Position numbers and translations under genes: made by a program. A DNA stretch of 63,085 nt, filler included, from Hausera hauseri (lineage: Eukaryota): the NCBI GenBank assembly GCA_046269625.1. It is 10 parts of 10 records of this genome, joined end to end, with 100 filler letters (N's around TTAATTAATTAA, not from the genome) between each part and the next. Parts side by side here need not be neighbours in the genome. Positions count along the whole stretch, not along the records: positions 1 to 6,058 come from JBJURY010147090.1; 9 more parts are not named here. One strand, 5' to 3'. Below the pieces are notes generated by a model. The model had not been told where the DNA came from. It saw nothing but the letters and a program-made list of their open reading frames with translations, and did not search any database. The first letter of the stretch is position 1. Each line of letters begins with the position of its first letter. Shown here in pieces: positions 1-44,000 of this stretch.

Positions 1-118
1 GTGCGTGCGTGTATCATTTTTTCTACCCCATGACTCATCCGCGAACCAAACTTTTCCTTCTTTCCGCGGGGGGGGGGTTGGTTTGGTGCGCTCACATCCC
101 CCTACTGACGATCCCTGT

Positions 119-1760
119 AAAAGGCTGAGAAAAAGTATTCCATTACTGAATTAGAAACCTCACCCGTTTAAGAAGCACTTCGACATTTTAGCGTTTACGC
201 ATACGGAGAGAAAATCATAATTGTTACTGATCATAAAGTTGTCACAACCCTGAAAAGGCGGGCAAAAAATACCACCTGTAGGCTGAATAGATGGTTTGAA
301 GAAATTTCTAGATATAATATTGAATTTCAGTATAAGCCTGGCAACAAACACGTGGATGTCAATGCACTATGGAGACTAAAAACCAAGACAAGTGTAACTA
401 CGGTAATGAAGAAAGCTGAGCTTGAAGAATTAATAGACTGTGAACGCGCTTTGACGTTGGACAAAGCACTGAAAATCTCAACCGATCAGAAAAAGGATAA
501 AGTTGTCCAGCAGATTATGGAATTTTCTAAAGGGATACAGTACCGAAAGGACGACAGCTTAAGAAACATTTATGCAGTCATGTACACTAATATTGTGTCT
601 TGAACCATAAAGGCCACGAAGACATTTTGTATTATGTACGGAAAGAAAGGAAATTAATAGTCATTCCAAAAGGCTTACGCACCGAAGTTTTAATGGCAGA
701 ACATGATTCATATTTAGCAGCACACATGTCATGGAAAGAGATGCTGGAAAGAATATTAAATAAATACTTTTGGCCCACTATCTATATTGATATGAAGAAT
801 TGGATAAATGCTTGCAATGTATGTGCAACTAAACAGAAAAAGACGAAAAATTATGTGGCAGAGCAAAAACCAATTGCCGTACCAGACAGACCTATGCAAG
901 CCATGTCAATGGACATTATAGGACCGCTACCTACGATTCACAAAAATAATAAATATATCCTAACTTGTATTGATCGATTAACTCACTTTGTCAAATTGGT
1001 AGCGATAACCGATCAAAGACAGAAACATTGGCAGAAGCTGTAGTAAGAAGAATAATTTGTCGATATTGGCCCCCATATCAAATACTGACAGATGGTGGAA
1101 GAAATTTTACCAGCGAATTGCTTGAGAAAATTATTAAAATATTTGAGATTGAGCGGTTAACAGCCACTACATACCATCCTCAATGTAATGGAATAGTTGA
1201 GTGAATGAATGCAACTGTCATACGCATATTATCCACAGTAGTAGCCAAGGACCAAAAAGGTTGGGACGAATTTTTAGTAGGAACTCAATTTGCCATTAAT
1301 ACAACACAACATCCAGCGACAGGATTTACACCATTCTTCATGATGTATGGACGTGAAGCTGTGTTACCCACAAGTTTAGAAATGACACTATACACGCTCA
1401 ATCCCGAAGATTTTAAACAAAATTTTTTGCAGAAGTGCTACAGACGCGATTGAAAAAATGTTGGGAATTTGCCAAAGAATTGTTTCGAGAATATCAAGAG
1501 CAGTTTTAAAGGCAATATTATAAAAAAGTAAAACCACACGATTTAGAACAAGGAAATTGGGTTTATGTACATTACCCAGTAGCTAAGAAAGGTACGTCGT
1601 TAAAACTGACTCGTACAGGCAGAGGACCATATAAAGTTACTAAAATTACGCCAGCTACGGTGTACATCAACAAGTATGGAAAAGAAGACGTCGTATCAGT
1701 ACAGAGAGGCGTTAAGACATATATACGACCCAATAAACGTTACAACCTACGACAACGAGA
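119..1760 (+). pseudogene. pol: Gypsy pol: RNase H C-terminus plus integrase (zinc-binding, rve core, GPY/F), with stops and frameshifts
   Basis: EHDSYLAAH..YFWP..CNVC (ORF 600-1043), SMDIIGPLP, ILTDGGRNF, YHPQCNG (~1170), TGFTPFFMMYGRE, RGPYKV (~1621). Confidence 0.92.
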
Positions 1761-1764
1761 GATG

Positions 1765-3200
1765 AAAACTTCTTTAATAATTGCTAGACCGATATCATAC
1801 ATTCAGATAGTTTTAGCACTGTCGTTAATTGCTTCTTATATCCCAAAAGCACAAACTCAAGGGTGGAATGATGAAACTACCCTAGGAGACGTATATGGAA
1901 TTCGGAAGAGTGGATTAAAGCCGAAAAACATTATAACGGAAAATAAACCAACGCCCGAAGAGATACAAAAACGAGAAGGCACTATTTTGTTACAACTAAT
2001 GAAGGTTCATTACTTTTTGCCCGACACTGTGTGTGCTGGATTTAAAACTTGGAGACCGCATCACAATTTTGGACGACTTCCAGTTGTACTATACGATGTA
2101 ACACCAAAGAAGTAAAAAACTGAGATTTTGAACCCGGAGATTACACACAGTGCTGCGACATAGATTATTGACATATCTACATCTTTACTTATCGACTGTA
2201 CTTACCAGACTCATCAGAAGTTTATATCGAAGTAAACCAACAACTTCAGTTAGTTATTCCCACTTGGACTAGACGATTCGAAATGAAACTCAACGAAATT
2301 CTACAACCCACCGACCCAAATATAAGGCTATCAGATGAAAACATCAAAAGAATTCAGTAAATAAAGAAAAACAGTGCTTCCAAGTAGATGCTCGAAGAGG
2401 ATTAACTCTACGTCAAGAAATTAGTATCGTTTTTGAAACAGTAAACGGGAAAACACCGAAAATTGAATATTGTTCTGTTCATGCCGGTGTGCAACACCCA
2501 TGTTGTAAGCTACCAATAAACCAAGAATTCAAAATAAGATTTGACTTATATCAAGTACGACCGAAAAAACGGAGCAAACACTTTCAAACATATTACCAAG
2601 AGAATAGAATATAGAGGATTCCAATAGAGACGACAACGAAAAAGCCAACAACTCGAGTTAGCACCATTACTCAAACCGTTACAACAGGTAGTGCACCTAA
2701 AAGAAAATTAGAAAGTGTACCTATCAAGTATTCGGGGCATCGATTTAGAATTGTGTTCTTTGTAGAAGAAAAACTAAATTACGATATAAATATAAGCTGC
2801 CGAACAACGTATAATAACCAAATTGTAACATTACTTAAAAACACTTAATAGACAGAATGCAATTTGTTAAAACCGCAATCCGATTACATAATACACGTAT
2901 ATGCAGAGAATAAACAAAACCAAACAATTACATTGCGTACCTTAGGTGAAATTCGTGCAGAATCGCATATATACGAAAACATAGACGATGAAATCACAAC
3001 TCCAGTCACCATGCAAGTAACAATGGGATTAACCACTTTACCGATAGTATTAATTGTCGTACTATCAAAGTTTGTTCTCATTATATTAATTGCGATTTTT
3101 CGGTTAGTTGCCAAAAATTGTCATTCTAAGCGTACTAAAACTACAGAATGAGAACTAAGGGAATTAGAAACCTCTATTGATCCGTATGATAAAATAACCT
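1765..3200 (+). pseudogene. Retrotransposon-borne type I membrane protein with signal-like segment, Thr-rich stalk, fibronectin type III-like domain and TM helix
   Basis: Hydrophobic IQIVLALSLIASYIPKAQTQ in frame with the integrase tail; LKPQSDYIIHVYAEN (FN3 LxPxxxYxIxVxAxN pattern) and TM LPIVLIVVLSKFVLIILIAIF in ORF 2864-3151. Confidence 0.6.
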
Positions 3201-3314
3201 GACAACTACAGAGCGGGTTATTCTATCATCAAATAAAGGATTGGTTATATTTCAAGACCATCCTTTATTGTAAAAGTAATCCTTACTGTTTATTTTTCAG
3301 ATTAGAGTATTCAC

Positions 3315-5911
3315 ATGGCCGAGCGATGCAGTATCGACAACCAACCAAAAGGAACAAGTCAAGAATTTCGATATAGCATCGACGAGTTTCTTCAGAAATA
3401 TGCCCCGTCTTCCTCCCAAATTCCAAATCCATATATCGATAAATTTATAACGAATTGCATGAGAAAACTTTAGTAAATTACGATCAGACTAGTAGAATTC
3501 CCAATAATTATAAGGTATTACGGAAGAAAATAGAATTGTCTCTCTCTGCGCTATTCGAAAAGACAAGGATGCCCGAGCATACTAACTCAAACAGATGATC
3601 ACGTACGAACATCACCAAAGTTTTATATCCACCTGGCAGACGGTGAGATATACTATTGATTCAAAGATCAAGAATGGAACGCTAATAACGGAAGGCAATA
3701 CAGATTTAGTACCCTTAGCCTACATAGCGGAGATTTGCATCACTATGAGTTAGAATTTCGAGTAGCTGCCCATCTTGTCAAATTGATATTCGAGGCGACT
3801 TACGATGACTATCCCTATATCCAACAGCCACCTTTGAAATTCTATCAACAACCGTCAGAAAAGGATTCGGACACATTCTTACAATCACATATACTAGTGC
3901 AAGATGCCAGAAATACAAGAATCATAGTAATCAATTGTGGAGAAGGGAATGATGAGCAATAGATTCCAATGGAAGTCTCAATTCGATAAGCGAACGGAAC
4001 AGAAGTATATTGTACGATTATTAGCCCGAGAAAAAGAGCCCGCGAGACATACTAGGATACGACAGGAATTCGCAATGAAACACTCCCGAGAGGTACAGAC
4101 GTCAAACTTGTCCAGGTCGAGTTAGAACATTGTTTATATGGATATATCCTCGCTGGATATCACGTCGACAGGATTGCTGAATTACTGGAAATACAAAGCT
4201 CAAGCATCGTAGGAATGCGTGAGATAGGAACACACCCGGTAGTCGCCGAGCAAACTAAACGAATATTGCGAGAAAGAAATTACACTGTGCCGAAAGTTAT
4301 GGATGCCTATTTCTAGTTAATGGTCGACGCCATGAACAGCGAACATGTTAAGATTAGCAAACTGTTAACCGCTAGTCAATACACTCAATACTTGCGCGAT
4401 AATTACGTTGCTTTAAAATGGGACCACGAATGGATACCCAGCAAACCATAACAAAACATACGAAGTTCGTCATATCCAAAAACTATAAACAAAAAGTACC
4501 GGAAGCAGTACCGTCCAGATTCCCCGTACAGGATTGTTGAACCTATGGCACAGGATGATGTAATGATAAATATTCGGAAATCAAATCAAACATGTACCGA
4601 TGTGCCCAGCTCCACTTATAGTTCCCACGACAAATCCAAATTACCCATTGAGAAACCGACTCCGAAACTGGAATCAATAATCAAAGGGATAGCCGCGACT
4701 GAGACATTCAAAGTTCCACAAGTTCCACAGAAAAAGCAGAAAATTGAACTACAAATTCCAGCGGTTAAAAAAAAATATCTCTCTACGACTACTTGTTTAG
4801 AAAGAAAAGCAAGACCGTAAAAGGTAGCTAAAGGAACGAGCTCAACCCAGGTACAAGAAGATCGAACTAATAAAACAAACGAAGACCCCGGAATTTCGGA
4901 GACAAGAACAGCAATCCCAACGACATCCGCAAATAACCAGATGACAATTCTAATCTCAGAAAAACCCAAGAGATCGATACAGAAATACAAGGACCCAGAA
5001 GGCAGATTTAAACAGCTGTTCGCGGAAATTAATGTGCTTCGGAAAAGGAACTACCAGGAAGATGTGCATTTTGCAACAACTAAAGATTACCCGAAAATGC
5101 TAGTGACCACCGAATATTATAGTCACCAAAAAATTAAAGAGGTGATGTTTTTCGTTAAGACCACACCAGCACGAGAAGTTTATGAAAACACTTACATTTG
5201 GAAAAAGCCTAAAATAGGGAAATATATTGCATCAGTTTTTCAGTCGAAAAGAAACGGCAGGTTAACAGTGCCAGTGGACAAGGAAATGAAAGCTTTGTTA
5301 AAGAAACTATATCAAAAGTATCAAACAGATGGTGAAATTCCCGATTTAGATCGAGATACCATCGTTGATTGGACATTAGTATCAGTAGGTTGTGACCCCA
5401 GAAAAAGTTCCGTAACCCCAAACAAAAGAGAATCCATGGTTATCTATACCAAGATAACTATGGCCTGTATTTGAATCCATCGAAATCACAATAAGAGTAA
5501 ACTTAGATGATGAGAAATGGGACAAAGATTAGAACAAATGCCCAGTATGTGAAGCGAACCTCAAACAAGGCTACGTCCGTCCTAGATAACCGCGATTTTC
5601 GACACAAATATTGTCGAGATTGCTTGGAGAAATAGACATTAAACGATGGTTAAACCACTTGCCCCGTGTGTAGAGCCGAGGCAACCGAATTAAAATATTT
5701 TTCGAATGGTAGTTACACCCGTGTAGGCCGCATAAAATCACATTACAGTTATGAATTAGAAACGTATTTCCGAGAAACGCAGCCTAATACGGACGCAGAA
5801 ATGGATTTACGTCGACGAATAAATCTCCTTAGACAACTAGATAATGGAGTCATTTCTCTTCACGAAATTGGCACATCCGAGGATGCCGCTCAGGGAGGAG
5901 ATATGTTGTAA
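3315..5911 (+). pseudogene. Accessory ORF (~860 codons, broken) ending in a C3HC4-type RING finger
   Basis: Continuous A-rich coding-like sequence from ATG 3315; at ~5539-5680 CPVC...FRHKYCRDCLEK*...TTCPVCR. Confidence 0.65.
5892..5903 (+). promoter_or_regulatory. Polypurine tract (plus-strand primer)
   Basis: AGGGAGGAGATA directly before TGT. Confidence 0.7.
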
Positions 5912-6058
5912 AGACGTTCAAAATTTGTAAATACTGTTATAAGCAGCATGTTGTAAATAATTATTATTTTATGGCATTTTTTCATTATTGTACAAAATTA
6001 GAAATTTTAATCGACATTCAACTAGTTAATTAACTAGTTATTAGACTTGTGCATTGAA
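5904..6058 (+). repeat. Start of 3' LTR (truncated by contig end)
   Basis: Begins TGT right after the PPT; sequence switches to AT-rich non-coding. Confidence 0.6.
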
Positions 6059-6158: not shown

Positions 6159-8191
6159 CCTGGCATATTCCGCCTCTAATGCCTCTCTCGATCATAAGGA
6201 TCATGTCGTAATCCTTGATGATCTGCAGCCTTATGCCGGTATATCTCTACATAGCTGCTCAGCTCATCCCTGGAGCCGTAAGTAAATGAGGCGGATCCAA
6301 TGCATTGCTCTTCATTGTAACATCCATGAAGCTATCAAAAACACCTGTCAGCAGCAGCACGTCCGTCTTGAGGTATATGTCGCTGTATTCCCTTAATGTT
6401 CGGCATTGGAATGCATACCAGACGTTCTGGTCATGGTGGTAGTCAGCATCACTGATATCGCAATCAGAGAGGATATTGTAAAAGTCCTTCTTGTCAGGCA
6501 ATGAGGTCTCATCAAGTGTTTTTCACATGACATTATGTAGTCATGGAAACACACCTTTCCGCTTAACCAGGTCAAAGGTAGTGGGGAAGAATCGCTTCGT
6601 TTCCTTAAGTTCTTCTGCAGGGAGGTTCTTCACTAAACTCTCTAGTGAAGACGACATAAAACGAAAGCTGTCTATGAATCGAAGACTGATTTTCCCAACA
6701 TGCTTGGTAAAGGCTATATAATTCTCCTCACTGTTAGGGATCACATCTATATTACCATCAATGTTGCCTAATTCTCGGACTATGAAATGGGAGTCACAGC
6801 CCGAGATTATGAAACATTACAGGTACATATGTACATGTTTTGCAGCGGAGATTTCAGTTCTTGCATGCTGCTCCTCAATATGCATCTGTAAAATGGCAAT
6901 GATCCTTGACTATGATTTTCCTTGGTGAAGGACTTTTCGCACAAGTAACATGTTGTTGCCTTGCGATATTCTTCTGCTTGTTTCCACGACATGCTCATTG
7001 TATCCTTATGCTGCTGAAGCAGGTTTTCAAGCTTATGAGCCATATATTCAAGTCGTTGCATAAAATGTTCTGCTGCACCTGGCCCATGAATAGAAATGGT
7101 TCACTGTCCAGTCCTTTGGCATACATGCCATACGATGAGAGTTCATGATATTGGTTTGCCGTTGTGCTGCTATGCATTTTTATTAACGATCCATTCCGGA
7201 AGCTGAATATATGAACTACCCCGCATGGGAGAGTACTTGTGAACATACACAATCTCTTGATGGTTGCCAGTCTATCCGCTCTTCTTACTCTGGCTCTCAT
7301 CGGATTCACGGATCAGCTTTGCATGTTCTTCATGCAGCCATTCTACTATATTGGTGGCTTCAAAAATGGTTCTATTTCTCGTCTTGAAGGTCCTTTTGGA
7401 CTCATCGGCATCAACATTGACGTATGTGGTCTCAAGTTTCATATTAGCCTTTATGGCCTTGAGCTCAGCTATGTTGTCCTGGAGAATTCCCTTTGTTTCT
7501 TCCTCTGTGTACTCCAGGAACTCCTTTATGGTTGTTTGACCAGTTGCATCAATGACATTTTGAGGCATTTCCTCTTTAAGACTGCAGCATCAACTAGCCG
7601 CTGTCTTTGACTCTTTGATGGAGCCGCTGCGCCTGATGCGCGTTTTAGTCCTGCATCTGGTTGTACTGCCGACTGTGGTACTGCAGGCTGTGCTGCCAAA
7701 GCAGGATGCTGATCTTTAAATATGACCTTCTTTGACTTTGATGCGAAGACAGTCAAATAATGTTTATGATCTTCATAAAAATGTATGTATTCTCCATCAC
7801 ATACGGCCTCACATCCTGGTCAGATATAATAGATAATCCTATTGAATTTGTGTCCATAATAGCTCCTCATGGTATTGTGAAAATTCTGAGTGTTGTGTAT
7901 TGCACATGTTCAATACACATATGAACTGCATCTTTGATTTTCCTTTGGCACGAAAGTCGTTATTGGCATATTGGTACTGAATATTTGTTTTTTTGACGTG
8001 GTGAAGGAAATCAAGTGCTGTTTATGGATATCGTAAAAATTTTCATAATTGGTTTGGCACACTACTTCACATGTAGGGCATATATAATACTGAACCCTGT
8101 TGTACATATGGCCAAAGTATTTCTTCATAACACTGTGGCAATTTTCCGGCTCGTGGATTTGAGCCAAACATTCGCTGTAAAGTTTGAACAT
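6159..8191 (-). pseudogene. Polinton/adintovirus-type protein-primed family B DNA polymerase, N-terminal half, degenerate
   Basis: TCYLCEK (endonuclease VII-like region), FIDSFRFMSSSLESLVKNL, RKGVFP, YSDIYLKTDVLLL..VF, LDPPHLLTAPGMS, IERGIRGGI at the contig start. Confidence 0.88.
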
Positions 8192-24974: not shown

Positions 24975-25400
24975 GATAACAGACGATTAAATGATAATAA
25001 CCGAAATCGAGGTTTCGATAATAGAAACGCCCATAATAGAAATCAAAGAAATGATAAAAATTTTAATAATCGAAGCACATACAACTCGTATAATAAACCG
25101 AATTACAGTTCAGATAGAAACCAAAGTGGTTACCGACCTAACGTTAAATACACTGATAATCGAAGTAACGAAATTCGATATGACGGAGATTATAGACAAA
25201 TGTTACAGGGTCAAAGTAAGAATACAAACAGAGCGAAATCGCCCGTGAATGAGGACGGCAGACAAAGGATTTGTCGGAATGGAAATTTAATTTGCTTTAC
25301 ATGCGGAAAAGAAGCTCATATTGCTAGGTCATACCCAAATCCTAGAAGTGTCACATTTACTGAACCAAACAAAACACGTATGATTAAAAATAACTTAGAA
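24975..25400 (+). pseudogene. gag: gag nucleocapsid region: N/R-rich stretch and zinc knuckle
   Basis: GNLICFTCGKEAHIARSYP (CCHC knuckle, last Cys mutated). Confidence 0.8.
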
Positions 25401-28199
25401 GCCATCTGTGGTAAACGAGGTGATATAAGTTTGATCATTGAAATGCAAGATCTACGCAGATCCGTAAGAAATCTATGCGAAACTACAAACCCTCAAATAA
25501 TGAACGCTAGAAAAGAATACGAAAAGAAATTACGATTGATGGAAGTTTATCATGGATTAAGAGAACCACAAGCTGAAGAAGAATGGGCACTAGCACCAAA
25601 TAATACTAATATGGCGCATAAGAAATCTATTCCGCAAGGAATAGCACAGTCGGAGAAACCACCGACATCTCAAAATGTAGAAATAGAAGCAGTAACACAT
25701 AATCCAGATGAAACAACGGATGAAGTCGAAAGTGAATTTATCGGACCCTTAGTTCTCAAGATAACGAAGAATATAGGTAGAAGCCCATCGCCTAAGAGAA
25801 AATCTAAGACACGATCACGATCGCCCATTAAAAGGGATACAGAATAAAAAAGAGATTTTCATACTGCTATCCTAAGAGATGACTCGCCCTTAGAGATTTC
25901 TATTACGCCTATAGGGATTCCATAAGTGTTAGAAACGCCAGAGATGATAAATGTTAATGACGAAATAAACGAAATTTGTCCGATTCCCGCTAGTGAAGAA
26001 GAAACGGACGATAATAATGATCCGGATGCGAGAAAATGGAAAGTTCGACGTTCATGGAAAAATGCTGATAAATTAAAGAGGATGAAAATTAAATGTCACA
26101 ATCCAGAAATACTCCGACATAATTTAGAAAGGCTTAAACAAATCAGTAAACAAACAGATATATCGGGTAAGGGATAACAGTTTGCGGAGAAATTATACCA
26201 ATGTTTAAAATTATGCAGTGAAGGGCAACTCGATAAAGCAATTGAAGTAATACAACCGGAAGAAGAACCACGAGATACGTTGATAAAATGGAACCACGAA
26301 TTAGAGTCATGGATTAAAAGTGGAGTAGAATTTTCGGAAGGATAGAGTAAGGACGAGGATAGCGTCGACATAAGAGTCGCTGAAGCGAAAACATTACTAT
26401 CCAATTTAGAAGCAAATCCCAAGTTGAAAAGAGTAACACGCAACTTAGAACGTAAGATGGACGAAATACGTTATATAATGATAAATCGGCTTAGAGAAAA
26501 ACAGGTTAGCAATAGAAGTAATATCGATTTAGAAATATTGTGTATAGACCCTATGGACATTCCTCCTTTAATAGAGATGATAAAAATGGCCTTTGTCGAA
26601 AACAGACGATGTGCAGACTTAAAGAACCGCATCAAAGTGGAGAATGAAAAAAGATCACAGATCAATAGTTTAAGAAACCAAATTATGTTCCCAAGCCATG
26701 AGGAAACTCAATACGTAATGGAAGCTTGTATCGCAGAACTGGACGAATATAAGGACGAGTTTAGTTATGTCGGTCGGATTATGACTTTCCTAAGAGGACC
26801 GGACGATAAGTTAAAAGATGCGTATAAGATGTTAGATAAGGCTATAATGGCGAAACCAGTAATCGCAAATTAATTGTCGGAATGGTCCGAGCTAGTAAAC
26901 CGACTAAGCAAATTAGTAGAAGACCGAAAAAAAGAATTCCCGCAAAGTGAACCAATGGTAAAGAAGCAGGTAGAAGAAAGTGCACATAATCTAGGCACAA
27001 TGCGAATAGAAATAGATATCCGTAGCAAATTCAAAGCATTAAGAGGGTTAAAATTTATGAAAAGAGAACAAGAAATGTCAACATTGGAGGAGATCTATAA
27101 ATTGATCGAAGAGACGAACTTCACGGAAAAACGAAACATGATTTATGATGTAAACTTAAAGTTAAAGGTTGCTCGACTAGAAAGAATCCAATACTTAACG
27201 GTAAAACTGCTCGACAAAATATCAGCACAAGACACTGAAATCTTAGACATCTGTCCCGGACATCGAGATACGTTAACAGATGCCATAAAATTCTTGCATA
27301 AACCATAAGAATGGATGACCGGATCGGATCAGAATTTTCATACCAAGTTGACAAAATTAAGAGGCGACGTACACTTCAGCTTTCACGAACACAAGTTCGC
27401 AAAGAAATTATCGGATGCAATGGACCCAGACTCGAAAGTCATAAATAAGATATACGAGTTAGCTTATCTCTTGGTAGAAATGGCAGAAATTAGTAATGAG
27501 AAATGAGGCAATTGATGCCCAAGATACAGAAAGTAGAAGAAACATGTACTAAAACCAAACAAAGAGCAACAAGGTTGGACGAACTAACGAAAGAGCTTGG
27601 AGCTTATCGGAACAAATATGCTTTTACTGAGTCAGAGATCAAAAATAAACGAGAATTTATACAAAGATGGCAAAGAAACGTAATTATTGAACTAACTGAT
27701 TATCATCAAAAAGGATTCATTGATTTTAATGGATTAGGCTAACTACTAAAAAAGATTCAGTACGCTTGTGGGAACAGAATAGGTTTCCGAACTACACATA
27801 TGAAAGAAATACAACCAATGCTGAAAGAAATTCGAGAAAATGTGCAAAGAACAAACACAGCTCTAATAAACTGTGGACTCCCAGATATTGGGAATGAACC
27901 AGAATGGGATGCTTACTTAGAAGAAATAGCGGCTGAAAAACCAGTAACTCCAGTACATTTAGAAGAAATAGAAAGGTATCCGCAGAACAGGAAATTCAAT
28001 GTAGAAATGCTCCTCGACTCAGCATTAACCGAGAAGGACATGATGGAATCAGTTAACGTGAACATAACTGAAAATAAGCTCAGAGAGCTCATTCCGACCT
28101 TAACTAAATTATCTAGCGAGAATACAATTTATAACATAGTGCCAAAACTCCTTATAAAGAAGTATGCGAATATTCTGAGAACTTTACCTGAAGTAGTGA

Positions 28200-28420
28200 A
28201 GAAATTAATGATATCATTCGACTAGATAAAAGAAAAAGAGTGTGAAATGACTACTCATTCCTACGTAAAGGATGTAAGAGAATGGTTACTGAACAATGGC
28301 GGAACAAATGAGTTAAATTACAGATTTTACTTTAGAGGAAGAATACTCGACGATTTAGAACAACTAATAGATGTCGGAATCATTCCCGGCGAAACAAATC
28401 GGATAGTAATAATAATAGCC
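28200..28420 (+). pseudogene. Ubiquitin-like domain inside the retroelement polyprotein
   Basis: VKDVREWL..G....YRFYFRGRILDDLEQLIDVGIIPGET.IVI parallels ubiquitin [38 protein letters not shown]. Confidence 0.7.
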
Positions 28421-29109
28421 AACGAACAAACAAAAGAAGAAGACACGCGGAAGGCTAAAGCGGAACACTGTGCAGGACAAATCCTGGGAGTACGAGACGC
28501 AGCAATGTATTTTGAGTACTTACAGACGGATGAAGACAAGGAACAATACAAGAATCTAGTGCCATTAAGTGTACTGCCACCTAATGCTCCAAAACCGAAA
28601 CGACCAGTATGCAGACCTAGGAAGCCCCGAGAAGAAATCGACTATAACGGAGAACTAATCAAAGAGTTAAAACAGATGTCAATTCCCACTTTTAATACAT
28701 ATAATGAAGAATTAAGAGAGTTGATGAGAAATTTAAAACGTATCGTAAATTATTCGAGTCTCCGTGGAGGTACATTAGATGAAAAAGAGAGGGAAATGTT
28801 TAACACAGCTAGAAAAATGAGAAGTTCTCGTTTCAAACTGTCTAAAAGTAGTCTAACCGATGATGTAGTAGTTGAGAAGATCATGGTGGAGAATACGATA
28901 GAAGAGCTAAGAAAAGTATTATTATACTTGGCAATAAAGACAAATCCAACTCGAGAAAATAAACTAAATCAAGCCATGAGTTTGGCACGAAAGGCATCCA
29001 GGAAACTTCCGTGTGAAATAAACAGGCCAAGTGTGGTAACAATAGACTTGAAGACGCCTTACGGAACTTGACGACAACAGACAATATCAACAAGAAGAAT
29101 CAATCAAAT

Positions 29110-31039
29110 TTGTTAATCAGTTTACTCACTATAATGATGTTAATAAAGCAGATGGGTGCTGTCACCGTCTATGATTGTGATAAATTCAAGCTTGGACAAA
29201 AATATTCACTAAGACTTAGAAGCATGGAAAGATGCCAAACCACACAAATTGGAAACAAAAGAAAAGAACTACTTCCTATACCAACAACAAGAATTCATAT
29301 CTCTGGACGGCATGGAATGTATGCTGACACGATCTCGTAGCATTTTTCACTGCGGGTTAATGCATGGACACTCCTCGATAATTAAACCAACAACCCCTCC
29401 AATTCCAATGAATTTAGAAAGACAACATTGCAAACAAGTTTGAGGAACTCGAAGACTGAAATGGGATAGCATGGAATTAGAAATGCAACCCGGAAAAATA
29501 ATCAGAGCATATAAGATAGTAGCCGGAAGACTAGATCTGCATAATGGGCACTGTAGTGGACCGGAATACGATACCGGAAAAGGATTGGAAGAAAACGTAG
29601 TCATAGTAGACTTTTACGAATCGGAAATGCGAGTTCAGAAAGTAATGTTCCATAGTGTCACTAAGCTATATATAAGAATAAAAAATGTCACATGCAAGAC
29701 GGAACTTGCGCCTTCAGAAGTTCTGTCGTCATATGAGAACCGCCCACTGGAAAGGCCTGTAATTTTATTAAGATCAAAGAACTAAAATTTAACGGAAAAC
29801 GATACGTAGATAAATCCGACATCAGTTCAAGAGCATGTGAGGACGTATCAGAGCATCATACACCTACGATATTAATCTCTGATCAACATGGATTGAAATT
29901 CATAAAAAAGGAAATGATTTCGCGATGTGAAGTAGTAATGTTTACCACTAACTACGAAGCGTTCTTCGTCGTAGAAACGGAGATAAACGCGAAAACATAC
30001 AACTTAGAAACACAAGATATTAGAATTGAAGATTATCTGAAAAACCGAGATGATTATTTTTATTATAAAGGACAGGTTGGAATAGCAGAACTATACCACA
30101 AAATGATGACTAACGATTGCAAATTAGATACGGAAATCATGAGGACAAAATTAGCCCTCATTTATGCAAACCTGGAATTAGCCTCACCAATTATTCCCAT
30201 AACAGAAGGAATTTTTGGCCGGGTTACTGGTGAAGTTCTACTGACTTATGAATGCGAGAAAAGAGATGTACCAATTAATGTTGAAGAAAAACGATGTATA
30301 CAAGAGTTCCATGTAATCTACCAGAATGCGCCACGTCTAGCCATGCCCCTCAATAGAGTGTTGCTTGATAATGCAACCCAACCCACGATTTTAAAGGATT
30401 GTAAAGCAAGTTTTGGCGAACCAATGTTTAGGCGTAGAAAAACGGATTGTGTTAACTTACCCAATGGAGCTGTCACTATTATTCCTAAAAACTAACTGTA
30501 ACTAATTTAGCAAAAGGAATTACTGATGACAAGTTCCAGGATACGTCTCAAAAAGGCATTTATTGACCAAAAGAGATCGACGCTTTTCGACAATTTCTCG
30601 CTTTTCCACGACAGCGAACACACGAATTAAACCGAGCTATGGCATCATAGTAAATGACACCCGTTATTAGACTAAATGGGAATCCTTGCTTGGCGCGAAC
30701 TATTACCAACGAGTAACCACCGAAATACTCTGCAAAATATGGAGAAGATTTTTAATTTTTGGACAAGCTGCATCTGGATTCTTACCGATCTATTTTATAG
30801 TACAACTAGTAAATGCGGTAATCCAAGCGGTTATAAGCGGGTACGAAATATTTACGTTAACAGGATTTTCCTGTAAGATCTTAACTGCAATTGTCACACC
30901 GTTAGGCAAAATGCTCAAAGCGTATGAGGAAAATCGATGGAAAAATGACGTTGAACGCCATGTCGGCTATTATAATTACAAACGACGAGCAAGACCCATG
31001 TTTCGATTGAAACACAAGGTTAAAAAACAAATGACGTGA
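29110..31039 (+). pseudogene. env: Chuvirus-like (class III fusogen-type) envelope glycoprotein
   Basis: Signal-like LLISLLTIMMLIKQMGA then VYDC; ECMLTRSRSIFHCGLMHGHSS; LYHKMMTNDCKLD; GEVLLTYEC; CIQEFHVIY; TM IWRRFLIFGQAASGFLPIYFIVQLVNAVIQAVISGY..GFS..ILTA, matching recalled chuvirus G motifs. Confidence 0.8.
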
Positions 31040-31272
31040 AGAAACAATTCAGATGATGATGAGCCTAAGGGAGGAGAAGTAATCCTAGGACCAAATAGAC
31101 ACAAAATGTGTTCAGTAATCAAGGCACCTTTGCCCATCATGCCGCCAACGGCTCCAATATACGAAGATTGCGACAGAACATCTATGGTGTCATATAGACT
31201 GGCATTCTGTCAGAAACCTTTTAGCTATAAAGATCCTTTTAAGGAACAAAACAATACGGAGTAATTAAGAAA

Positions 31273-32523
31273 ATGCAGATCACTAACCAAAGACAAGCGG
31301 AAGATGACCATGAAATATTGTACTCACCGAGAATAGCTTGCAATATAAAGACAAAACCAACAGTCTGGGGAACTCCAGGAATGAAATCGTTCCAAAATCC
31401 GATAGTACAAGTACCATTAATTAGAAACAATGCGAAAAATATGGAAGTTAACAACTTGTACCCTAACGAAGAACTGAAACAGCTGACCGAAAATATTATT
31501 TCATCACCAGAAATAACAATAAACGGACATAAGATTTCTTCGATTAAACTACCAAAGGACGTGTCAAGTTGTTACGGGTCAGTTATGGAAGAAAGACCCT
31601 TCGCAAAAGTTACCATTAAAGATGGGGAAGTCTATGCCTTAATAGACACCGGATCGGAGAAATCATTTATAAAATTAGAATCAATACTGCCGACACTACG
31701 AAAACAACTGCAGACAGCATCATTATCAGACCCCGGCAGCATAGGAGCCTTCGGGCAAGAATCCAAACCAAAATTTAAATGGAGACCCTTGGTCCAGTTA
31801 ATGGGTCAAATTCCTAGACACGAGTTCGCCCTAATGGACCAACATACCGATGGCATAGTATTAGGATATGATATACTGAAACAATTACCTAATATCGCAA
31901 TAAATTTACAGATTGGAAAACTACTTGAAATTGGACCAGTGAAAGGGATTAAAACAATGAAAGAAAAGAAGCAAGGAGAAGTATGGATTCCTGTCGACGA
32001 AAATATTCCGCCTAAAACCGGAATGCTAATTTATGCTCAAATCCGCAAAGAGGATGACCAACTAGTATATTTTGAACCACAAGAGGACGTAAATCCAAAT
32101 ATCATACTTAGTAACATTTTGACAAGAGTAACGACAGGAAGAGTACTAGTCAGATTAGTTAATAACGCACCAATCTCTGTAAAATTGTACACCAATACTA
32201 CGTTGGGTCACACTTATAAGGTGTCAGCAATAATAATCGAAGAAAAACCATATAAATATGCTGAATTTCCACCTCATGTTGAAACAAAGTTTTCGCGGGA
32301 AGCATATTGCCAATTTTACGAACTACTATGCAAATATAAATCAATTATTGCCCAAAATGAAGAAGACATAGGTAAAGCGAAAACCTTAAGATTAACCATT
32401 CCATTAAAAAAGAAACTTGGCTCCAATGATGAAATTGAATTGGAAGAGCAAAAGATGTTAAAATGGTCCTCACCGCCACATTCGTTAAGGCCGGAAATAA
32501 CAAAAGCAGTAGAACGTGTGTAA
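31273..32523 (+). CDS. pro: Retropepsin aspartic protease and spacer domain
   Basis: VYALIDTGSEKSFI and GIVLGYDIL; open 416-aa segment of a broken polyprotein. Confidence 0.85.
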   Translation: MQITNQRQAEDDHEILYSPRIACNIKTKPTVWGTPGMKSFQNPIVQVPLIRNNAKNMEVNNLYPNEELKQLTENIISSPEITINGHKISSIKLPKDVSSCYGSVMEERPFAKVTIKDGEVYALIDTGSEKSFIKLESILPTLRKQLQTASLSDPGSIGAFGQESKPKFKWRPLVQLMGQIPRHEFALMDQHTDGIVLGYDILKQLPNIAINLQIGKLLEIGPVKGIKTMKEKKQGEVWIPVDENIPPKTGMLIYAQIRKEDDQLVYFEPQEDVNPNIILSNILTRVTTGRVLVRLVNNAPISVKLYTNTTLGHTYKVSAIIIEEKPYKYAEFPPHVETKFSREAYCQFYELLCKYKSIIAQNEEDIGKAKTLRLTIPLKKKLGSNDEIELEEQKMLKWSSPPHSLRPEITKAVERV

Positions 32524-33524
32524 AAAGCTGACATAATACGACCAAGCTATCGATCTTGGTACTCACCAATACTCATGGTTAAGAAAAAAAGGTATCACTA
32601 AACACCGGTTCTGTATAGATTACAGAGCCATAAACACACTTATGATGAAAGACTCATGTTCACTACCATCAGTAAAAGAAGCTCTAGATAGATTATCAGG
32701 AGCAAAATGGTTTACCACACTGGATTTACAATCCGGATACTGGGAAGTGGAAATTAAAAAAGATGATCGTTATAAAACAGCGTTCAAGACACACGACGGA
32801 GTTTATGAATTCAACGTTATGTTATTCGGTATAACAACCGGCCCAGCTATCTTCACCAGGATGATGAATAAAATGTTAATGGGACTTGATCATGCGTTCG
32901 CATATTTAGATGATGTAATGATAGCATCAAAAACAGAAAACGAACATCTAAAGGATATCGAGGATACTCTTATGCGATTGGAACAGGCAGGATTGAAACT
33001 GAACCAAAAGAAATGTAAGTGGGCACAAAATGCTGTATCTTATCTAGGACATATAGTCGGAGAAGAAGGGTCAAAACCAGATAATTCTTTACTAAACAAA
33101 ATATCGAATTGTATGGAATCCCAGAACCAGAAAGAGTTGCGACATTGATGAGGCCTATGTGGATATTATGCCACTTATCTGCCAGATAATTCAAAAATAA
33201 ATGCACCATTATATCTACTATTAAAAAAAGGAATCAAATGGAAATGGACCGATGCTGAACGAAAGGCGTTCGACGAAATGAAAAATATTTTAACAAGTGA
33301 ACCAGTGTTGAGATACCCCAATTTTAATTTACCCTATATAATTAAAACAAATGCAAGTAAAGAAGGGATTGGTTATGAATTGGCCAAAAAACGAGAAGAT
33401 GAAGAATTGGAGCATCCGATTGCATATGGAGGACTGGCGATCAAGAGGGCCGAGAAAAATTATTCAGTAACTGAACTAGAAACGCTAGCTGTAAAAGAAG
33501 CCTTAAGGCATTTCAACATTTACG
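32524..33524 (+). pseudogene. pol: Gypsy reverse transcriptase and RNase H
   Basis: RFCIDYRAIN, WFTTLDLQSGYWEV, KTAF, AYLDDVMI, IKTNASKEGIG, PIAYG..AEKNYSVTELE. Confidence 0.95.
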
Positions 33525-35409: not shown

Positions 35410-38116
35410 TTATCTTAAGCGCCAATGTCCGTACGCCCAACTTTTATTTCTCCCCACCCACTTTCGCTTATCATCGTTGCATGACAAAGCAACCTTTTTA
35501 TTTGTGATGGTATACAGCTGGTGCTCAATCGATCGTATGTTCGTTTGAGACACAACAGCCGTTCCTCCTTCTCCGTCATCTTGTCCATCATAGACACGGA
35601 GATAATCACCGTGATTTATTTCCGTCTGTTTCAGCTGGATGCCTTTTGCCCGCATTTTCGGCCCACAGTCTGTTAGAAGACTGTAACACTTTGGGCACAA
35701 AAATATCCATTCCTTGTATTGAACCCGGCCTTCACTTTCGTCCTTGAAGCAGTCGATTTTGTTTGTTACCGCGCTGCTGTACAGTGAATGGTCCGGTGGG
35801 TAGTTGGACGCGTCCAGTAGTCCATCTGACATCATTTGTCGGAGCAGCTGGTCTCGATTGATGTTTTTCAGATCAAGAAAGAAGCTGTCTGTGTCACCGG
35901 CAACGACACTGATCTTACAGTCGCCGCTGCCGCCGAACATTTTCCGGTAACGTGCCAAGTCGCAATATTTGAGCTCGTACATTCGCAACTTGCTCAGATC
36001 CAATACCACTTGTCCAATGTAGCTTGGCCGGTCCAGTACGACTTCTTCCCAGTTTAGAAGCACGGCGACCAATCCATCGGCAATGTGCATTGACCGTCTG
36101 AACTAAGCCTTGCTGGTGTACGTAACCAGTCGTTTTTCGTTGTTGGACAGGCGCACATTGAGCCGCTTCTTCAGATTTTCCACTGTTTTCCCGTCCAGTG
36201 AATTGTTTTTGAGCTTGTAATAGTCCTTTTCGAACTTTGTACAAATTGCAGCTCGTTTCCCGGAATTTCCATCAATGTATGCCTTGAATATCGGCACCTG
36301 ATTGAAGCGGATTGCACGAATCAGCTGTGTGACGCGTACACCGAGCTGCATGTAAAACTGCAGCAGACGCCAATGAACCACGTAATTCGATTTGGGTTCA
36401 TGTGTTATGATCTGTTTCTTTACTTTTGAGTAGCCGGGTAGACATTGGCTAATTGGTGCGACCGGCAGTTCATCCAGAAAATCATGCACCTCATCCGGTA
36501 CCACGAGATCAACTTCCATTAGGTAACAGACTGAGCTGCTTTCTGTCGTGTTTGCTGCTTGCAGACTGTCCACCAATGTATTTCGTTCTTGTTTGTCCAT
36601 TATCCATTCAAATAAACCTTACTGCAAAGGTTGCGAAAGCGCCCAGCCGTTCGGGTTATTAATATCGATGTACAACATTGACGTTGTATCATCGTCATCA
36701 CTGTTTACGTGATGCTTCTTGACAAATGTCATGCCGCCACGAATGCCAACGTCAAACAGTTGGTATATTCCCGGGTCTTGTAGCAGCTCAATGTCTCGAT
36801 CTAGTGACATTAGTTCCGATGCCCAACTCATTCCCGGTATTGAGTAAAAGTTGAGCGGTTCCAACCTATCTTCATCCAACGCTTTAGCCCAAAATGTCTG
36901 AAACACATTGGCTAATAAGTACACATCGAGCTTTAGATACTGAAGCATGTAGTCCAACATGTTTCTACAATTGAGCTCTGTTCAAGATTCCTGTGCTCTG
37001 TGATATTCATCTTCTGTGATACCTGTCCATCGCGGCGGTAATTCCTCTGTCGTCCGGAGTCGCTCATATGACACGGCAAAGTCATACGGGAATATACCTT
37101 TGCTCCGTGTAATATGTGTGGGAACTGCGTCATTGCTATCGACACATCCGGCAAGGCATTTACCAGCTTCGCCAGCGATTAATTGAGAAATTGCAATGAA
37201 TCGAGGAAGCGTACCTGGAACCGGTTCATGCGTGCCAATAGGGAGAGGTACTTTTCCATCTTTGTTGGGATTATGGATAGCTCCCAGTGCGGAAATCCAT
37301 TTACGGAGCATTTCAGAATATGGTGACAGTCATAACCCCTGAAGTTATGCTTCTCCCAAGTATTGACCAGTGAAATGATCGTGATCCGATACGAGCCGTT
37401 CTAGTGCGTGAAACGGTAATATTTTGTGACACAGGTAACATTCATCGGTCGCAGAGAACATCAGCTGTTCATATTCATCTGTCCAAATCAATGGTTTAGT
37501 GAAATTATTGCGATAGTACGGCTCTATTTCCGTTTCCACTATCGTTTCTAAACGCTGCAGGAAATCACGTACAGAGTTCCAGCCGTGAAAGGCGTAATAC
37601 GGCGGCTGACTGACCGCTTTTATTGGGGCAACCAACATACAAACGGCAATTGGAACGTGTTTTTGATCATACTCGTTGTGCCGTGGTAGAATTGCCTCAA
37701 TATCGGAATATATTATATATGCCAAACTGTCCGTTTTTGACCAGTCACTGAATCGGAAGCTCCTTTTTGAGTGGCATGACGTACATGGTTGTTCCCGTTG
37801 AATTCTGCTTGCACAGCGCCACATGTTTTTCCCATGCTGCCTTTGACCTGAAACCACGCAGACATACAGGACACCATATACATTGTATACGCTTTTGGAC
37901 AAACTGATGGTGATCCATGTTCAACAGTCGGTCCAAATTGGTCACTGTCATGTAACGGAACTTTTCTTTTTGTTCCAGCAGTAACAAATATATTGGGCGT
38001 CCATTGCGTTCCGACTTTGATATATTATGTCTACATGGGGGTTCTTATATATCTCTTCGTTTGCCGGTATTTGTACAATTGTATTGTACCGCAACACATT
38101 TATTACCAGTGTTGGA
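35410..38116 (-). pseudogene. Protein-primed family B DNA polymerase (Polinton/adintovirus type), nearly full length, degenerate
   Basis: CPVC..H..C finger, IIYSDIEA, DHDHFTGQYLG, KGIFPYD, YLKLDVYLL, GIRGG, YIDINN..GWALSQPL, YYKLKNNSLDGKTVEN, GDTDSF, FKDE, PKCY, DDKR. Confidence 0.93.
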
Positions 38117-38734: not shown

Positions 38735-40433
38735 ACGGGTAAAATGATTGTGATCCGGTACGAGCTGTTCCATAGCATTGAACGCTAACCTTTTTTGACA
38801 CAGATAATATTCATCGGTGGCAGCAAAAGCAACTGTTTGTATTCATCTGTCCAGATCAAAGGTTTAGTGAAATTATTGCTATATCACGGTGCTATTTCTG
38901 TTTTTACTATTGTTTCCAAGTGTTACAGGAAATCGCGAATATAGTTACAACCATGAAAAATGTAATACTACAGTTGACCAGTGGATTTTATTGGGACAAC
39001 CCAACATACCGACGGCAAATAGAACATGCTTCTGGTAATAAACGTTGTGCCGTTATAGAATAGCTTCGATATCTACATATACCACATATGCAGGAATGTC
39101 CGTTTTAAATAAGTCACGGAATCTGAGATTCTTGTTAACAAGCATTACGTACATTGTTGTTCCTGATGAATTTTGTTTGCATAACGTCGTATGTTTTTCC
39201 AATGTTGCTTCTGACTTGAAACAATGCAAGCATACAGGACACAATTTACATTGTATACACTTTTTGATGAACTGATCATGGTCCATGTTTAACAATCTGT
39301 TTAAATTTGTCACGGCCACGTAACGAAAATTTTTCTTTTGCTCTAATAGTAGCAAATTTACTAAACAGACTTTCGGGTTCCGACTTCGATAAATTATGTC
39401 CACATGAGGATTCTTGTAAACCTCTCCATCCGTCAGTATTTCTACTATTGCGTTATACAGGAAAAAGTTTATTGATAGTGTCAAATTACGCCGTTCAAAA
39501 GCCGGAATGCTTTTCAGTTTCATTAGCATCCAGCACTCATCAAAGTCCAATTCGAAAAAATATTGCCGATACTGTTTTGGACGATATGCATGATCTCTGG
39601 ACACTTCGTTATATTTTAATACAGCCAGAATGCTGTAAAGAAATCAGTATTCCTCAGTATTTTTTACATTCACTATTGCAAGAGACTGCTTCAGAGCTGC
39701 AGGTGTCGGTATGTATGATCGTCCAGACGAATATATTATATCACTTGGCTTTGTTATAATAAAGTCGAGAGTGATAATTTTTATAATTCTTCATCCACTA
39801 CCTTTTTCGGTAGAGTTGGCGATTTTCTCATCGAGCCTTTCGCCTATATCAGCAATAAATCTTCGGAATAAGGTACAGCTGAATGTAACAGGTACCACTG
39901 TTTCCTGTCACCTTGTACATTTTGAAATTTACATATTGCACTTTGCAGTGGTGTTGGAATTTCTTCACTTCTGATTCTAATCGAATGCCCACACTGGACG
40001 GTACGTGTATTAATTGCAGTGTTGTTCTCGCTGACATGTCCACTTTCATGTCCACGTACGACATGTTTAGAATCTAATCTTTAGATCGTACTTCACAGTA
40101 ATGGGAAGGTAAAGTTCCTACTGATGCTCCTGCTGCTGATGCTGCTGATGACAATGCTGCGTACTGATGCTTTAATGTATTCTTTAAGGCTTGTTAAATC
40201 TTGACGTTTTCTGCTTGTTGAGGGAATGCTTTTGTTTGGTGCGTCCATCACTCTTTGCCTTTTGGAGCGCTAAAACTGGTTAAATGATTCCTATGGTCGT
40301 TATAAAATTGTTCATAGTTGATTTGCGCTAAAACTATTGAACAACCCGGACAAATATAGGCCCGTTTACCATGCACCGTTTTGGTGCCACAGTATTGCTC
40401 CATTTTACTATGACACCCATCAACGTTATGCAC
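38735..40433 (-). pseudogene. pPolB N-terminal region (paralogue of the contig F copy)
   Basis: LLLEQKKNFRYVAVTNLNRLLNMDH, LCPVCLHCF..KHTTLCKQNS, VYVDIEAIL and DHNHFT align with 37350-38100. Confidence 0.85.
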
Positions 40434-41049: not shown

Positions 41050-44000
41050 AACCTCCTCTGACCTACCCTCACCATCGAGCGGCGATCGGTGGGCCTTGAC
41101 TGGGGTGGCTGGCATTTGGCTTGAGCGTTTTGAGAGCCATTTCGCCGGAGGTTTTGGCGCGCCCTCAATTCGTGCGACACATCGCGTCCCGGGCATTTTA
41201 GACAATTTTCTATACCTCGTTTCTTTTTCTCAGAATAAACAAGTACACTCATGTTACGTGCGTAAAAAGTCATCAGTTGAAAACTTGTCTGGTGTGTTGT
41301 CACATCAAACTAACTTTAGTAGTTTTCGCCTTAACTTCAATGGTTTTCTTCTTCATCCATCGGACATTCTCACATCTTTTCCCCATTTATCTTTAACACT
41401 TCTGCTCACCATACACCTTTGCTCAGCTGGTCTGATCCAAAAGCCTCATCTAACGAACAACAAAACTTTGTCGACATTTCTGCTCTCAGTGTACCTCTAA
41501 ATCCCCCTCTACCTCCGCCGTCTACCATAAACCTACCTTTCGTAGAATACTTAGCCAACAAGCAACATTCCAGCCGAACATGGCTGGACATCCATGCAGC
41601 TGGGTTAAAGTCAAATAATATGGTCGACTCCTTCCTTAAAGCAAACAGCTTTCTTATACTTTAGCCTACCAACATTAAATCGCCGTTTTCCAACTTTTTG
41701 TAAATATTTCAAAGCAGTGACCCATAAAAAGCACTCTTTAATTAGACCTTAAAAATCACGTAACCATCTCTGGATAATATTATCCACAAATATTTCTATG
41801 ACAACACCATAGGCACATTAAAACCCTCAGAATTTCTTCAAACCTCGTTAACTCAGTTGAGTACTCTTGGCGTTAATCAAGCAAACAACGCCGATTTACT
41901 ACGCAGATATTTTCTGCGCTCTTTACCCAGAGACATACGTGCATTATTAACTATAGTAGAGGATACATCGACACTACAAAAGCTGGCACAATTGGCTGAT
42001 AAAAGCCGTGAGATATTACTCGCACATACAGCCCCATTAGTCATTGCTACGCTGCAAACATGAGCAACACAACAGGTTGACGAAATATCAAACATGAACA
42101 GTCAAATTAATTCTTGACGTACCAAATATGCCAATTTCACTACTCACATCGAAAATCGAAGCTTTGGCCATGCCTAGGCGGAGTCGTTTCGATGCTAACC
42201 ATAGTCGCACTTTGTCTCAAAGTTCAAGACATACGATGTAGCCTACACGATCAATGGTGTGTTACTACTACTCAAAATTTAAATATAATGCCACTAGATG
42301 CTTCATAAGTTGCAGATTTATGTTCCCATTTTAGAGGATACAATATTGTCTGCATTTACCATAATAAGTTTAACTTCAAAGCCACAACTGCATCACAGGT
42401 TGCACCTTTGTTAACCGATCAAATCCATCACAACCTACTTCTTCAAATAACTTAAATACTGTACCTCCAAAAATCTTATAAAGCCACCAGATATTTCGGT
42501 ACATACTGGCACGGTCAAGCGTTTTAATTCTGATAGCTGCACCTACACTGTTTTCACTTTAAAAGCCTCCTTGACATCCAAACCCAGTCAACCAATTAAC
42601 TTCCTTATTGATTCGAGGCCGCTGTCTCTTTGTTGCCATCGTCCATCAAAACAACAGCCATTTCACCATCTAACACCAGGTTGTATACAGCCAACGGCCA
42701 AGCATTATCTGCGTTCTGCACGTCCTAGATCTCATTCACGTTACCACCATTCTCCGACATTTTGAAATGGATTTTCATCATCGCCGACACACAATCCCCA
42801 ATAATTGGCTCTGATTTCCTATCTTTCTGCAACCTCGTTACAGATTGCAAACAACGTCGGATCATTAAAAGCAGTTCAACAAAGCCAACTTCTACAAATA
42901 ACCCCCCACGAACCACGCATCCTATCTCATCTATAAAATCGATATTAAAGAAATCATAAGCCAACGTAAATAAAAACCTTATTGATACCAATATAAATAA
43001 TCCAACGTTTTAGTTGAAGTCCGATAAAAAAGGAACGAAAAGCGTTGACAAAGATGATTGAGGCAACTCGATTTCTACCGTTTCTTTCACTGCGTCCAAT
43101 CAATTCACCGCCATAACGACAACATACTTTACTACGCTTAGCCAAGGATTACGACAGTATTTAATCAAGACATGTTTTCGTACGATAAAAAATATGCAGA
43201 ATTTCGACCAGCTGGCACTACATTCCATCATATATATCACAGAAAATCTTAGGCCTGTTAGGCAGAAACTCCGATCACTTTCAACACACCGTCGACTGGC
43301 TATCCAAGCGGAGTTCTCTTCACTCGAGCAAGCTGGAATAACAAAACGCTTTAAATCAGCGTGGGCATCACCACTCCACGTCGTCCCAAAAAGGTGGCAC
43401 ATTTCGTCCATGGGCGATTATCGCCAACTTAATAATGTCACTACAATGGATGCTTATCCTCTACCGTTGATTAAGGATATGTTACATTCTTTGCAAAAAA
43501 CCACAATTTATTCAACCGTAGATCTTGAAAAAGCCTACCACTAAATACCGGTAGCACTCGAAGACGTCCAAAAACGGCCATAATAACACCCTATGGTCTC
43601 TTCGAATACGCATTCATGCCGTTCGGTTTGAAGAACGTAGCACAAACTTTTCAACGACGCATTGATTCAGTCCTTTCAGGTTTGCCATTTGTACATATAT
43701 ATATCGACGATATACTAGTCGCATCGACATAACCCAAACAACACTAAGTACATTTCAGACTAGTTTTCCAACACTTACACAACTATAATTTGCAAGTTAA
43801 CTTTTCTAAGTGTCCCTTCTTCCAGAAAAAGGTTAATTTCCTTCGCCATGTCATCACACCTAATAATCACAGTCCATAGCCTGATAGCATTCAACAATTA
43901 CGAAACATTGAGTTACCAAAAACTACTACTGACATGCATAGTTTCCTCGGGACGTTACATTTTGCACATAAATACGTCCAACACTGTAGTCAGTTAACTG

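Follow-up and report, generated by a model that had tools for sequence, protein, structure and literature searches.

The stretch of DNA analyzed here, called the window, comprises 63,085 nucleotides of the Hausera hauseri assembly GCA_046269625.1 in ten parts with 100-N filler between them. On the first of these joined short contigs (positions 1–6058, JBJURY010147090.1) a decayed Ty3/gypsy element is represented by its 3' part. The last accessory gene of the element, open reading frame 4 (ORF4), is likely spliced and combines a predicted oxygenase-like barrel, a catalytically dead DEDDh exonuclease fold and a RING finger. We give about even chances to the reading in which the protein encoded by this gene is an E3 ubiquitin ligase that uses its dead enzymes for binding RNA or ribonucleoproteins (RNPs). 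An earlier note on the same DNA had named the RING finger only; the finger stands, but it is preceded by the barrel and the nuclease fold.

ORF4 and its intact relative

The search of 5.8 billion proteins (4096 candidates) produced a single match to ORF4, P0005, an intact natural protein of 870 amino acids that is 35% identical to it (E 2e-104). P0005 aligns along the whole of ORF4, including the RING finger and the C-terminus, and downstream it matches two frames too. The coding path guided by P0005 consists of seven frame segments with six shifts and includes 12 internal stops, so the copy in the window is dead. The start codon that the earlier note had placed at 3315 is present, and the frame opened by it is left at about 3405 and rejoined at about 3620. 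Also the length suggested there, about 860 broken codons, was close to the approximately 865 found, but the frame does not end at the polypurine tract (PPT) as supposed: about 80 codons follow the RING finger, and the frame crosses the PPT (5892–5901) and stops at 5909–5911 within the long terminal repeat (LTR). ORF4 and P0005 are 42% identical both on the barrel side and in the nuclease; the linker has 32% identity and the conserved domain preceding the RING finger (pre-RING domain) 45%.

The scan of protein representatives (1.84 billion) gave 114 matches at E values up to 0.001, most of them covering the RING region only. Seven of the 114 match the N-terminal half of the protein (P0006, P0008, P0022, P0025, P0045, P0046 and P0108). 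The word-indexed search with P0005 returned P0005 alone, and no locus was found when metagenome contigs were searched with P0005 or viral contigs with alignment A2.

Nuclease fold and predicted oxygenase-like barrel

The nuclease fold was identified by several comparisons. In the PDB sequence search residues 246–345 of P0005 matched DnaQ and PolC exonucleases, and a profile of seven sequences matched ISG20L2 (E 5e-19), ISG20 (1e-10) and SDN1. Pfam RNase_T was passed by four of the seven relatives of the N-terminal half, and RNase_T was also the Atlas lead (score 0.90). A profile built solely of the rows of 14 related loci (L001–L014), the active relatives, found the window at 3906–4427 with an E value of 2e-12. 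The structural model of L001 (19 rows, mean predicted local distance difference test score, pLDDT, 85.4) was superposed on ISG20 with a Z score of 20.0 and a root mean square deviation (rmsd) of 2.0 over 160 aligned positions.

The catalytic positions of motifs I–III (D-x-E, the acid of the second motif, H and the final D) are replaced in both the window and P0005. The D-x-E is kept in all 13 locus rows and in P0046; it is missing from the window, P0005, P0006 and P0008, and P0045 retains only its E. Likewise, all 12 full-length locus rows have the H...D of the third motif, which the window, P0005 and P0008 lack.

For the N-terminal domain only the part 55–208 of the poor full-length P0005 model was used. 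This part matched ALKBH7 with a Z score of 8.5 (rmsd 3.4, 137 aligned), and among the 50 matches listed almost all were 2-oxoglutarate (2OG) oxygenase or cupin-type barrels by title (Z 7.3–8.7). Also the L001 model matched ALKBH7 (Foldseek E 3.5e-6) together with viral 2OG-oxygenase domains. The iron-binding motif HxD/E formed no conserved column in the 19 rows and was not found in P0005; one histidine of the barrel is conserved in 17 of 18 rows, without an acid at position +2. The N-terminal domain of ORF4 is thus predicted to be an oxygenase-like barrel without the catalytic motif.

RING finger and pre-RING domain

The RING finger of P0005 is complete with its eight zinc ligands, and in the Pfam check for zf-C3HC4 proposed in the earlier note it passes the cut-off of the family (PF00097, 30.8 bits against 21). 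It also retains the Trp of the helix, the Pro and the Arg that follows the last Cys, residues with a role in E2 binding and activation, and the PDB sequence matches of P0005 include the RING E3 ligases RLIM, RNF4 and TRAF6. The window copy, from which the finger was originally read, retains seven of the eight ligands, with Phe at the position of the third Cys; one frameshift and a pair of stops interrupt the finger, so that the ligands are not in one open frame, and its 3' half matches Pfam zf-C3HC4 with an E value of 0.002.

These defects are private to the window copy, since the copies in X1, the sole run analyzed, differ from it at the sites concerned. X1 consists of contig pieces and may be the window's own source. 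Of a summed depth of 769 at the third-Cys codon, 749 belongs to 37 X1 contigs that deviate from the window, and at both stop codons of the RING the larger part of the X1 depth deviates from it too. The RING finger of the ORF4 family would most likely act as an E3 ubiquitin ligase, recruiting host E2~ubiquitin, as judged from its ligands and neighboring residues.

The pre-RING domain gave no Pfam family above the cut-off and no match in L001–L014. Among these loci no RING finger or pre-RING domain was found fused to the nuclease.

Predicted splicing and accessory cassettes of the relatives

The pyrimidine-rich tract ending in CAG at 3300, noted earlier, proved to be real. The acceptor, TCCTTACTGTTTATTTTT followed by CAG, has pyrimidines at 15 of 18 positions and ranks first among the 185 plus-strand YAG sites of the 6058-base contig. 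Under a first-order Markov model (200 simulations) 0.005 sites of such strength are expected per contig. A second AG at 3304–3305 could form a tandem acceptor, and in the window copy there is an in-frame stop between the AG at 3300 and the ATG at 3315.

A T-rich YAG is located at most 15 bases before 11 of the 14 nuclease starts and 12 of the 16 other accessory starts of L001–L014 (together 23 of 30), as compared with 35 of 957 control ATGs and none at the single gag start. In these relatives the acceptor is often GTAATTTTAG followed directly by ATG. The splicing of ORF4 is considered likely on account of the strength of its acceptor and the recurrence of such acceptors before accessory starts in the relatives. 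The contig spans only positions 1–6058, and the 5' LTR, the leader and any splice donor therefore lie outside it. The N-termini of P0005 and P0006 open with Phe/Leu-rich stretches, which could represent read-through of an acceptor tract of this kind.

In L001 the accessory ORFs precede the exonuclease, behind which come about 1.6 kb of LTR-like sequence, a site resembling a primer-binding site (PBS) and then gag, and in L005 a PPT and TGTTG come after the exonuclease. No other long ORF separates the nuclease gene from the LTR junction in L001–L005, and the same applies to the window. In L002 and L004 the genes upstream of the nuclease gene include a TRAF gene (RING, zf-TRAF and MATH) and small, separate RING genes.

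The loci L001 (226–4950), L002, L003 and L004 contain cassettes of three to seven short accessory genes ahead of the LTR. The genes of the cassettes encode RING, RING-H2-like, TRAF and coiled-coil proteins and a nuclease in which the barrel is joined to a DEDDh domain with an intact site, and most of them begin directly after a T-rich YAG. Candidate GTAA donors are present in L001 inside the LTR and immediately downstream of the PBS-like site. Such acceptor-led cassettes suggest gene expression in the style of complex retroviruses in invertebrate gypsy elements.

ORF4 is the last gene ahead of the LTR and is preceded by a strong acceptor, which is consistent also with a spliced regulator comparable to Rev or CERV, in which the dead folds would bind the genomic RNA for its export, protection or packaging and the RING finger would be a scaffold or a control of self-turnover. 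An element with many acceptors needs to export unspliced RNA, and in the part of the Cer1 paper used here CERV is a spliced 3' ORF acting in this manner (PMC10309623). Furthermore, P0008 has the dead nuclease without a RING finger. Against such a regulator, the RING finger of P0005 retains the residues of E2 binding, the several stand-alone RING and TRAF genes of the relatives point to host ubiquitin pathways, and CERV has no obvious homology outside nematodes according to the same part of the paper (PMC10309623). A regulator of this type is regarded as doubtful, but as deserving attention.

In L002 and L004 the nuclease gene is flanked by TRAF and small RING genes, which would suit also an E3 ligase that tunes apoptosis or innate-immune signaling by way of protein partners, its dead folds serving as mimics that bind proteins, in the manner of the TRAF, BIR and BCL2 cargo of the planarian Burro elements. 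BIR, BCL2-like and MATH domains are reported from Burro in the part of the paper used (PMC6431247), and the N-terminal domains of vaccinia C16, a poxvirus protein, are among the barrel matches. However, the best-supported fold of ORF4, with 42% identity retained at long distance, is of a nucleic-acid-binding type, and Pfam found no TRAF, BIR or BCL2 domain in ORF4 when P0005 was scanned. A role in signaling is considered unlikely.

Association of ORF4 with the LTR element

The earlier note's view of ORF4 as an accessory gene of an LTR element is borne out by the RNase H and integrase upstream of it and by the PPT and LTR downstream, and the Pfam matches follow the Ty3/gypsy pol order of RNase H and then integrase. 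The PPT and LTR were claimed to belong to the same element, and this assignment holds on the basis of a shared C-terminus, a recurring junction and the pattern of divergence in X1. P0005 ends in QGGEML and the window in QGGDML, the window codons being formed by the PPT and the start of the LTR. The junction GAGATA/TGTT is common to the window and L001–L005. In X1 many families share positions 5861–5917 and diverge behind 5906–5912, and the positions 5918–6058 remain multi-copy with a depth similar to that of ORF4. Altogether 12,300 X1 contig pieces match the contig at 80% likeness, and since there is depth in all 30 bins, the family is multi-copy with ORF4 included.

Two further observations were made at this junction. 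About 50 bases around the PPT (within 5861–5917) reach an X1 depth of up to 75884, far above the flanks. In L001–L004 the tract before GAGATA/TGTT is AAACCCCCCGAGATA, which is C-rich instead of the usual purine tract.

The 12 stops and six frameshifts of the window copy could be taken to mean that ORF4 is a passenger, a captured host sequence in neutral decay with its acceptor as a remnant of a host intron. The frame of P0005 has nevertheless remained open over 870 codons at 35% identity, which is a sign of selection, and no named host protein with the architecture of ORF4 was found in the protein searches made. In addition, those relatives whose context includes an LTR or gag are genes of LTR elements, and the stop codon of ORF4 lies inside the LTR itself. 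The passenger explanation is largely refuted by these observations and is held to be very improbable.

Proposed function

In the proposed mechanism the AG at 3300 would be the partner of a donor in the 5' leader, with translation starting from the ATG at 3315. ORF4 would descend from an accessory gene with a barrel and an exonuclease, catalytically intact in distant relatives, and its lineage would have lost catalysis and gained the pre-RING domain and the RING finger. The RING finger would recruit host E2~ubiquitin while the dead domains would attach to host RNPs or to RNA, in the most plausible case the transcript of the element itself. Nearby host proteins, such as RNA-silencing, decay and antiviral factors, would then be ubiquitinated, and the RNA of the element would be protected. 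The weakest step of the proposal is this combination of E2 recruitment, RNA docking and ubiquitination of host proteins. An adaptor bringing RNA or RNPs to ubiquitination would be the simplest use of a dead nuclease beside a RING finger.

The proposal could be extended to a clade of giant animal gypsy elements with a virus-like spliced cassette, in which the RING, TRAF, coiled-coil and ISG20-like RNase genes would each have an acceptor of their own. In the ORF4 lineage the RNase gene would have become an RNA-directed E3 ligase, its two dead enzymes attached to the element's RNA and its RING finger destroying the host silencing or decay proteins, for example PIWI complexes, that arrive there. 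We have little confidence in this wider version. If true, it would mean a retrotransposon-encoded, ubiquitin-based suppressor of RNA silencing; how animal transposons withstand the defences by piRNA and RNA decay is still an open question.

Several points weigh against ORF4 as an RNA-directed ligase. The copy in the window is unable to make the protein, the fused architecture is whole in two sequences only (the window and P0005), and the C-terminus is the single feature that appears to place P0005 in an element. Because the dead nuclease of P0008 comes without a RING finger, the pseudonuclease can persist without the ligase. The loci L001–L014 were found by patterns from conserved nuclease motifs, one of which included D-x-E, and the share of active forms among them is therefore inflated. 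The scores of the barrel are middling (Z 7.3–8.7), and the mean pLDDT of the full-length P0005 model is 38.6. The acceptor counts of the relatives are supportive and not independent proof, since the rule was fixed after inspection of the data, two of the nuclease starts are second ATGs picked by alignment, and the 14 loci derive from two metagenome sources and are related to each other. One sign of selection is that in the RING frame 7 of 11 X1 split sites were at third codon positions (p 0.04) versus 5 of 19 window-outlier sites, but this count covers 30 sites from 40 of the 59 X1 rows. Finally, the ligase activity, the RNA binding and the host target of the protein are properties that we infer. 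P0005, being intact and natural, would allow ligase activity, RNA binding and substrates to be tested directly.

Other features of the element and the window

The features of the ORF4 contig are collected in Table 1.

Table 1. Features of the ORF4 contig (window positions).
Feature	Position	Strand	Basis or remarks
Other repeat, truncating the 5' side of the element	~1–120		First-bin X1 depth 70802
RNase H end of pol, decayed	123–603	+	Pfam RT_RNaseH E 3e-8
Integrase (H2C2 finger, core, C-terminal part), frameshifted	591–1761	+	Integrase_H2C2 E 1.6e-16; rve E 2e-4 to 1e-3
ORF3, broken type I membrane protein, continuing the frame of the integrase end	1762–3151	+	Translations, hydropathy
Predicted 3' splice site (pyrimidine tract and CAG)	3280–3300	+	Best of 185 YAG
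ORF4, decayed accessory gene, ~865 codons	3315–5911	+	35% identity to P0005, E 2e-104
Predicted double-stranded beta-helix (2OG-Fe(II) oxygenase/cupin-like)	3370–3810	+	Coordinates projected from P0005 55–208
ISG20/REXO4-type DEDDh exonuclease fold, pseudonuclease	3906–4427	+	Profiles, model of a relative, motif columns
Less conserved linker, likely disordered	4428–5069	+	32% identity to P0005, 42–45% in the flanking domains
Conserved pre-RING domain (P0005 596–735)	5070–5485	+	45% identity to P0005
C3HC4 RING finger, broken	5539–5674	+	Frameshift near 5580; stops at 5633 and 5651; Phe at third-Cys position
Polypurine tract, overlapped by the last ORF4 codons	5892–5901	+	Sequence
5' part of the 3' LTR, first 155 bases	5904–6058	+	Starts TGTTG; ended by the contig edge

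ORF3 is separated from ORF4 by 160 bases. By hydropathy it has a signal-like hydrophobic stretch at about 1774–1833 and a transmembrane stretch at about 3005–3115. It gave no Pfam family above the cut-off and matched no known envelope (env) family. We took it by its appearance to resemble fibronectin type III (FN3) proteins, a likeness unsupported by the searches made, there being no PDB match. A type I membrane protein with a signal-like start and a C-terminal transmembrane stretch is encoded upstream of the nuclease gene both in the window element and in L006. The membrane protein of L006 (1–1512) did not match any known env family either, and its homology with ORF3 was not significant, as 162 of 1000 shuffles attained the score. 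At the end of ORF3 (3031–3232) the X1 depth has a peak of 13158 compared with 700–2000 in the adjacent bins, perhaps reflecting a cis element common to other subfamilies.

Elsewhere in the window there is a third gypsy-type pol remnant (43062–45204, plus strand; reverse transcriptase fragment and integrase). An ORF with a TRAF/meprin MATH domain (50247–50699, minus strand; Pfam E 3.5e-15) shares its contig with ORFs that by eye are DNA polymerase B-like, and it is possibly a further case of TRAF cargo in a mobile element. Four decayed ORFs (6259–7819, 35413–36618 and 39056–39643 on the minus strand, 48421–49245 on the plus strand) presumably resemble the protein-primed DNA polymerase B of the Polinton/adintovirus type; two pieces of such ORFs were scanned and gave no Pfam match. 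Positions 51737–58102 consist of a tandem satellite with about 40 copies of 146–147 base units in two subtypes.

Comparison with known systems

The comparison draws on parts of the papers cited. The planarian Burro/GYPSM1 elements are giant gypsy-like elements with RING, MATH/TRAF, coiled-coil, BIR and BCL2-like cargo, which has been proposed to interfere with host ubiquitination and apoptosis (PMC6431247). The RING finger is real, but with RING and TRAF genes already described from these giant gypsy elements it is less surprising alone. In Burro a glycoprotein lies between gag and pol (PMC6431247). The window contains a second decayed gypsy element (24975–33524, plus strand) with a gag-like start, a long region, a glycoprotein and then protease, reverse transcriptase and RNase H (PR-RT-RH). 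The glycoprotein is of the mononegavirus type and matches the fusion glycoproteins of Monjiviricetes in Pfam (PF24664, E 2e-16). The contig thus shows the Burro order with an env-type glycoprotein between gag and PR-RT-RH. The ORF4 element is probably Burro-like, as suggested by this gene order together with the related RNase H, the end of which is 73% identical between the two contigs over 77 nt (123–199). In Burro, however, most of the extra domains are in the ORF1 polyprotein, and section 7 of the paper includes no exonuclease, oxygenase or acceptor-led 3' cassette (PMC6431247).

The bdelloid Juno and Vesta elements have, like the ORF4 element, an exonuclease of the DEDD superfamily as a 3' accessory ORF (PMC5408684). 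Their ORF3 is RNase D-like, of the DEDDy type and with intact catalytic residues, whereas ORF4 is ISG20/REXO4-like, of the DEDDh type, dead, and fused to the barrel and the RING finger; the words 'RING' and 'ubiquitin' do not occur in the main text of the Juno/Vesta paper. ORF3s are there said to be typically expressed from spliced messages, and Maelstrom and EXD1 are given as dead DEDD proteins that bind RNA (PMC5408684). The AlkB/2-ODD ORF of orchid Ty3/gypsy elements similarly gives large gypsy elements an accessory domain with the 2OG-oxygenase fold, but it is an active m6A demethylase of plants, while the fold in ORF4 is predicted, lacks a conserved HxD/E and is fused to the nuclease and the RING finger (PMC9289625).

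The ISG20/ISG20L2/REXO4-type DEDDh enzymes (1wlj, 7yw5; grouping in PMC3985635) share the fold of the active relative and are the best profile matches. The ORF4 subfamily differs from them in having no catalytic residues and in being element-encoded and multi-domain. For CERV of Cer1 in Caenorhabditis elegans, an RNA-export factor, no RING-finger or nuclease domain is described in the part of the paper used (PMC10309623). The terms exonuclease, RING, TRAF, fibronectin and splic had no occurrences in the main text of an eLife survey of env-carrying gypsy elements (PMC13524379). The literature found in a search for retrotransposon-encoded E3 ligases in silencing consisted, by titles and beginnings of abstracts, of host factors and reviews and not of element-encoded ligases. 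The fusion of barrel, DEDDh nuclease and RING finger with both enzymes dead was not found in the literature searched; the supplementary annotations of Burro could contain ORF4. As far as searched, the acceptor-led cassettes are new, and RING, DEDD nuclease and AlkB cargo are each known separately in LTR elements, their fusion in one protein being what is new in ORF4.

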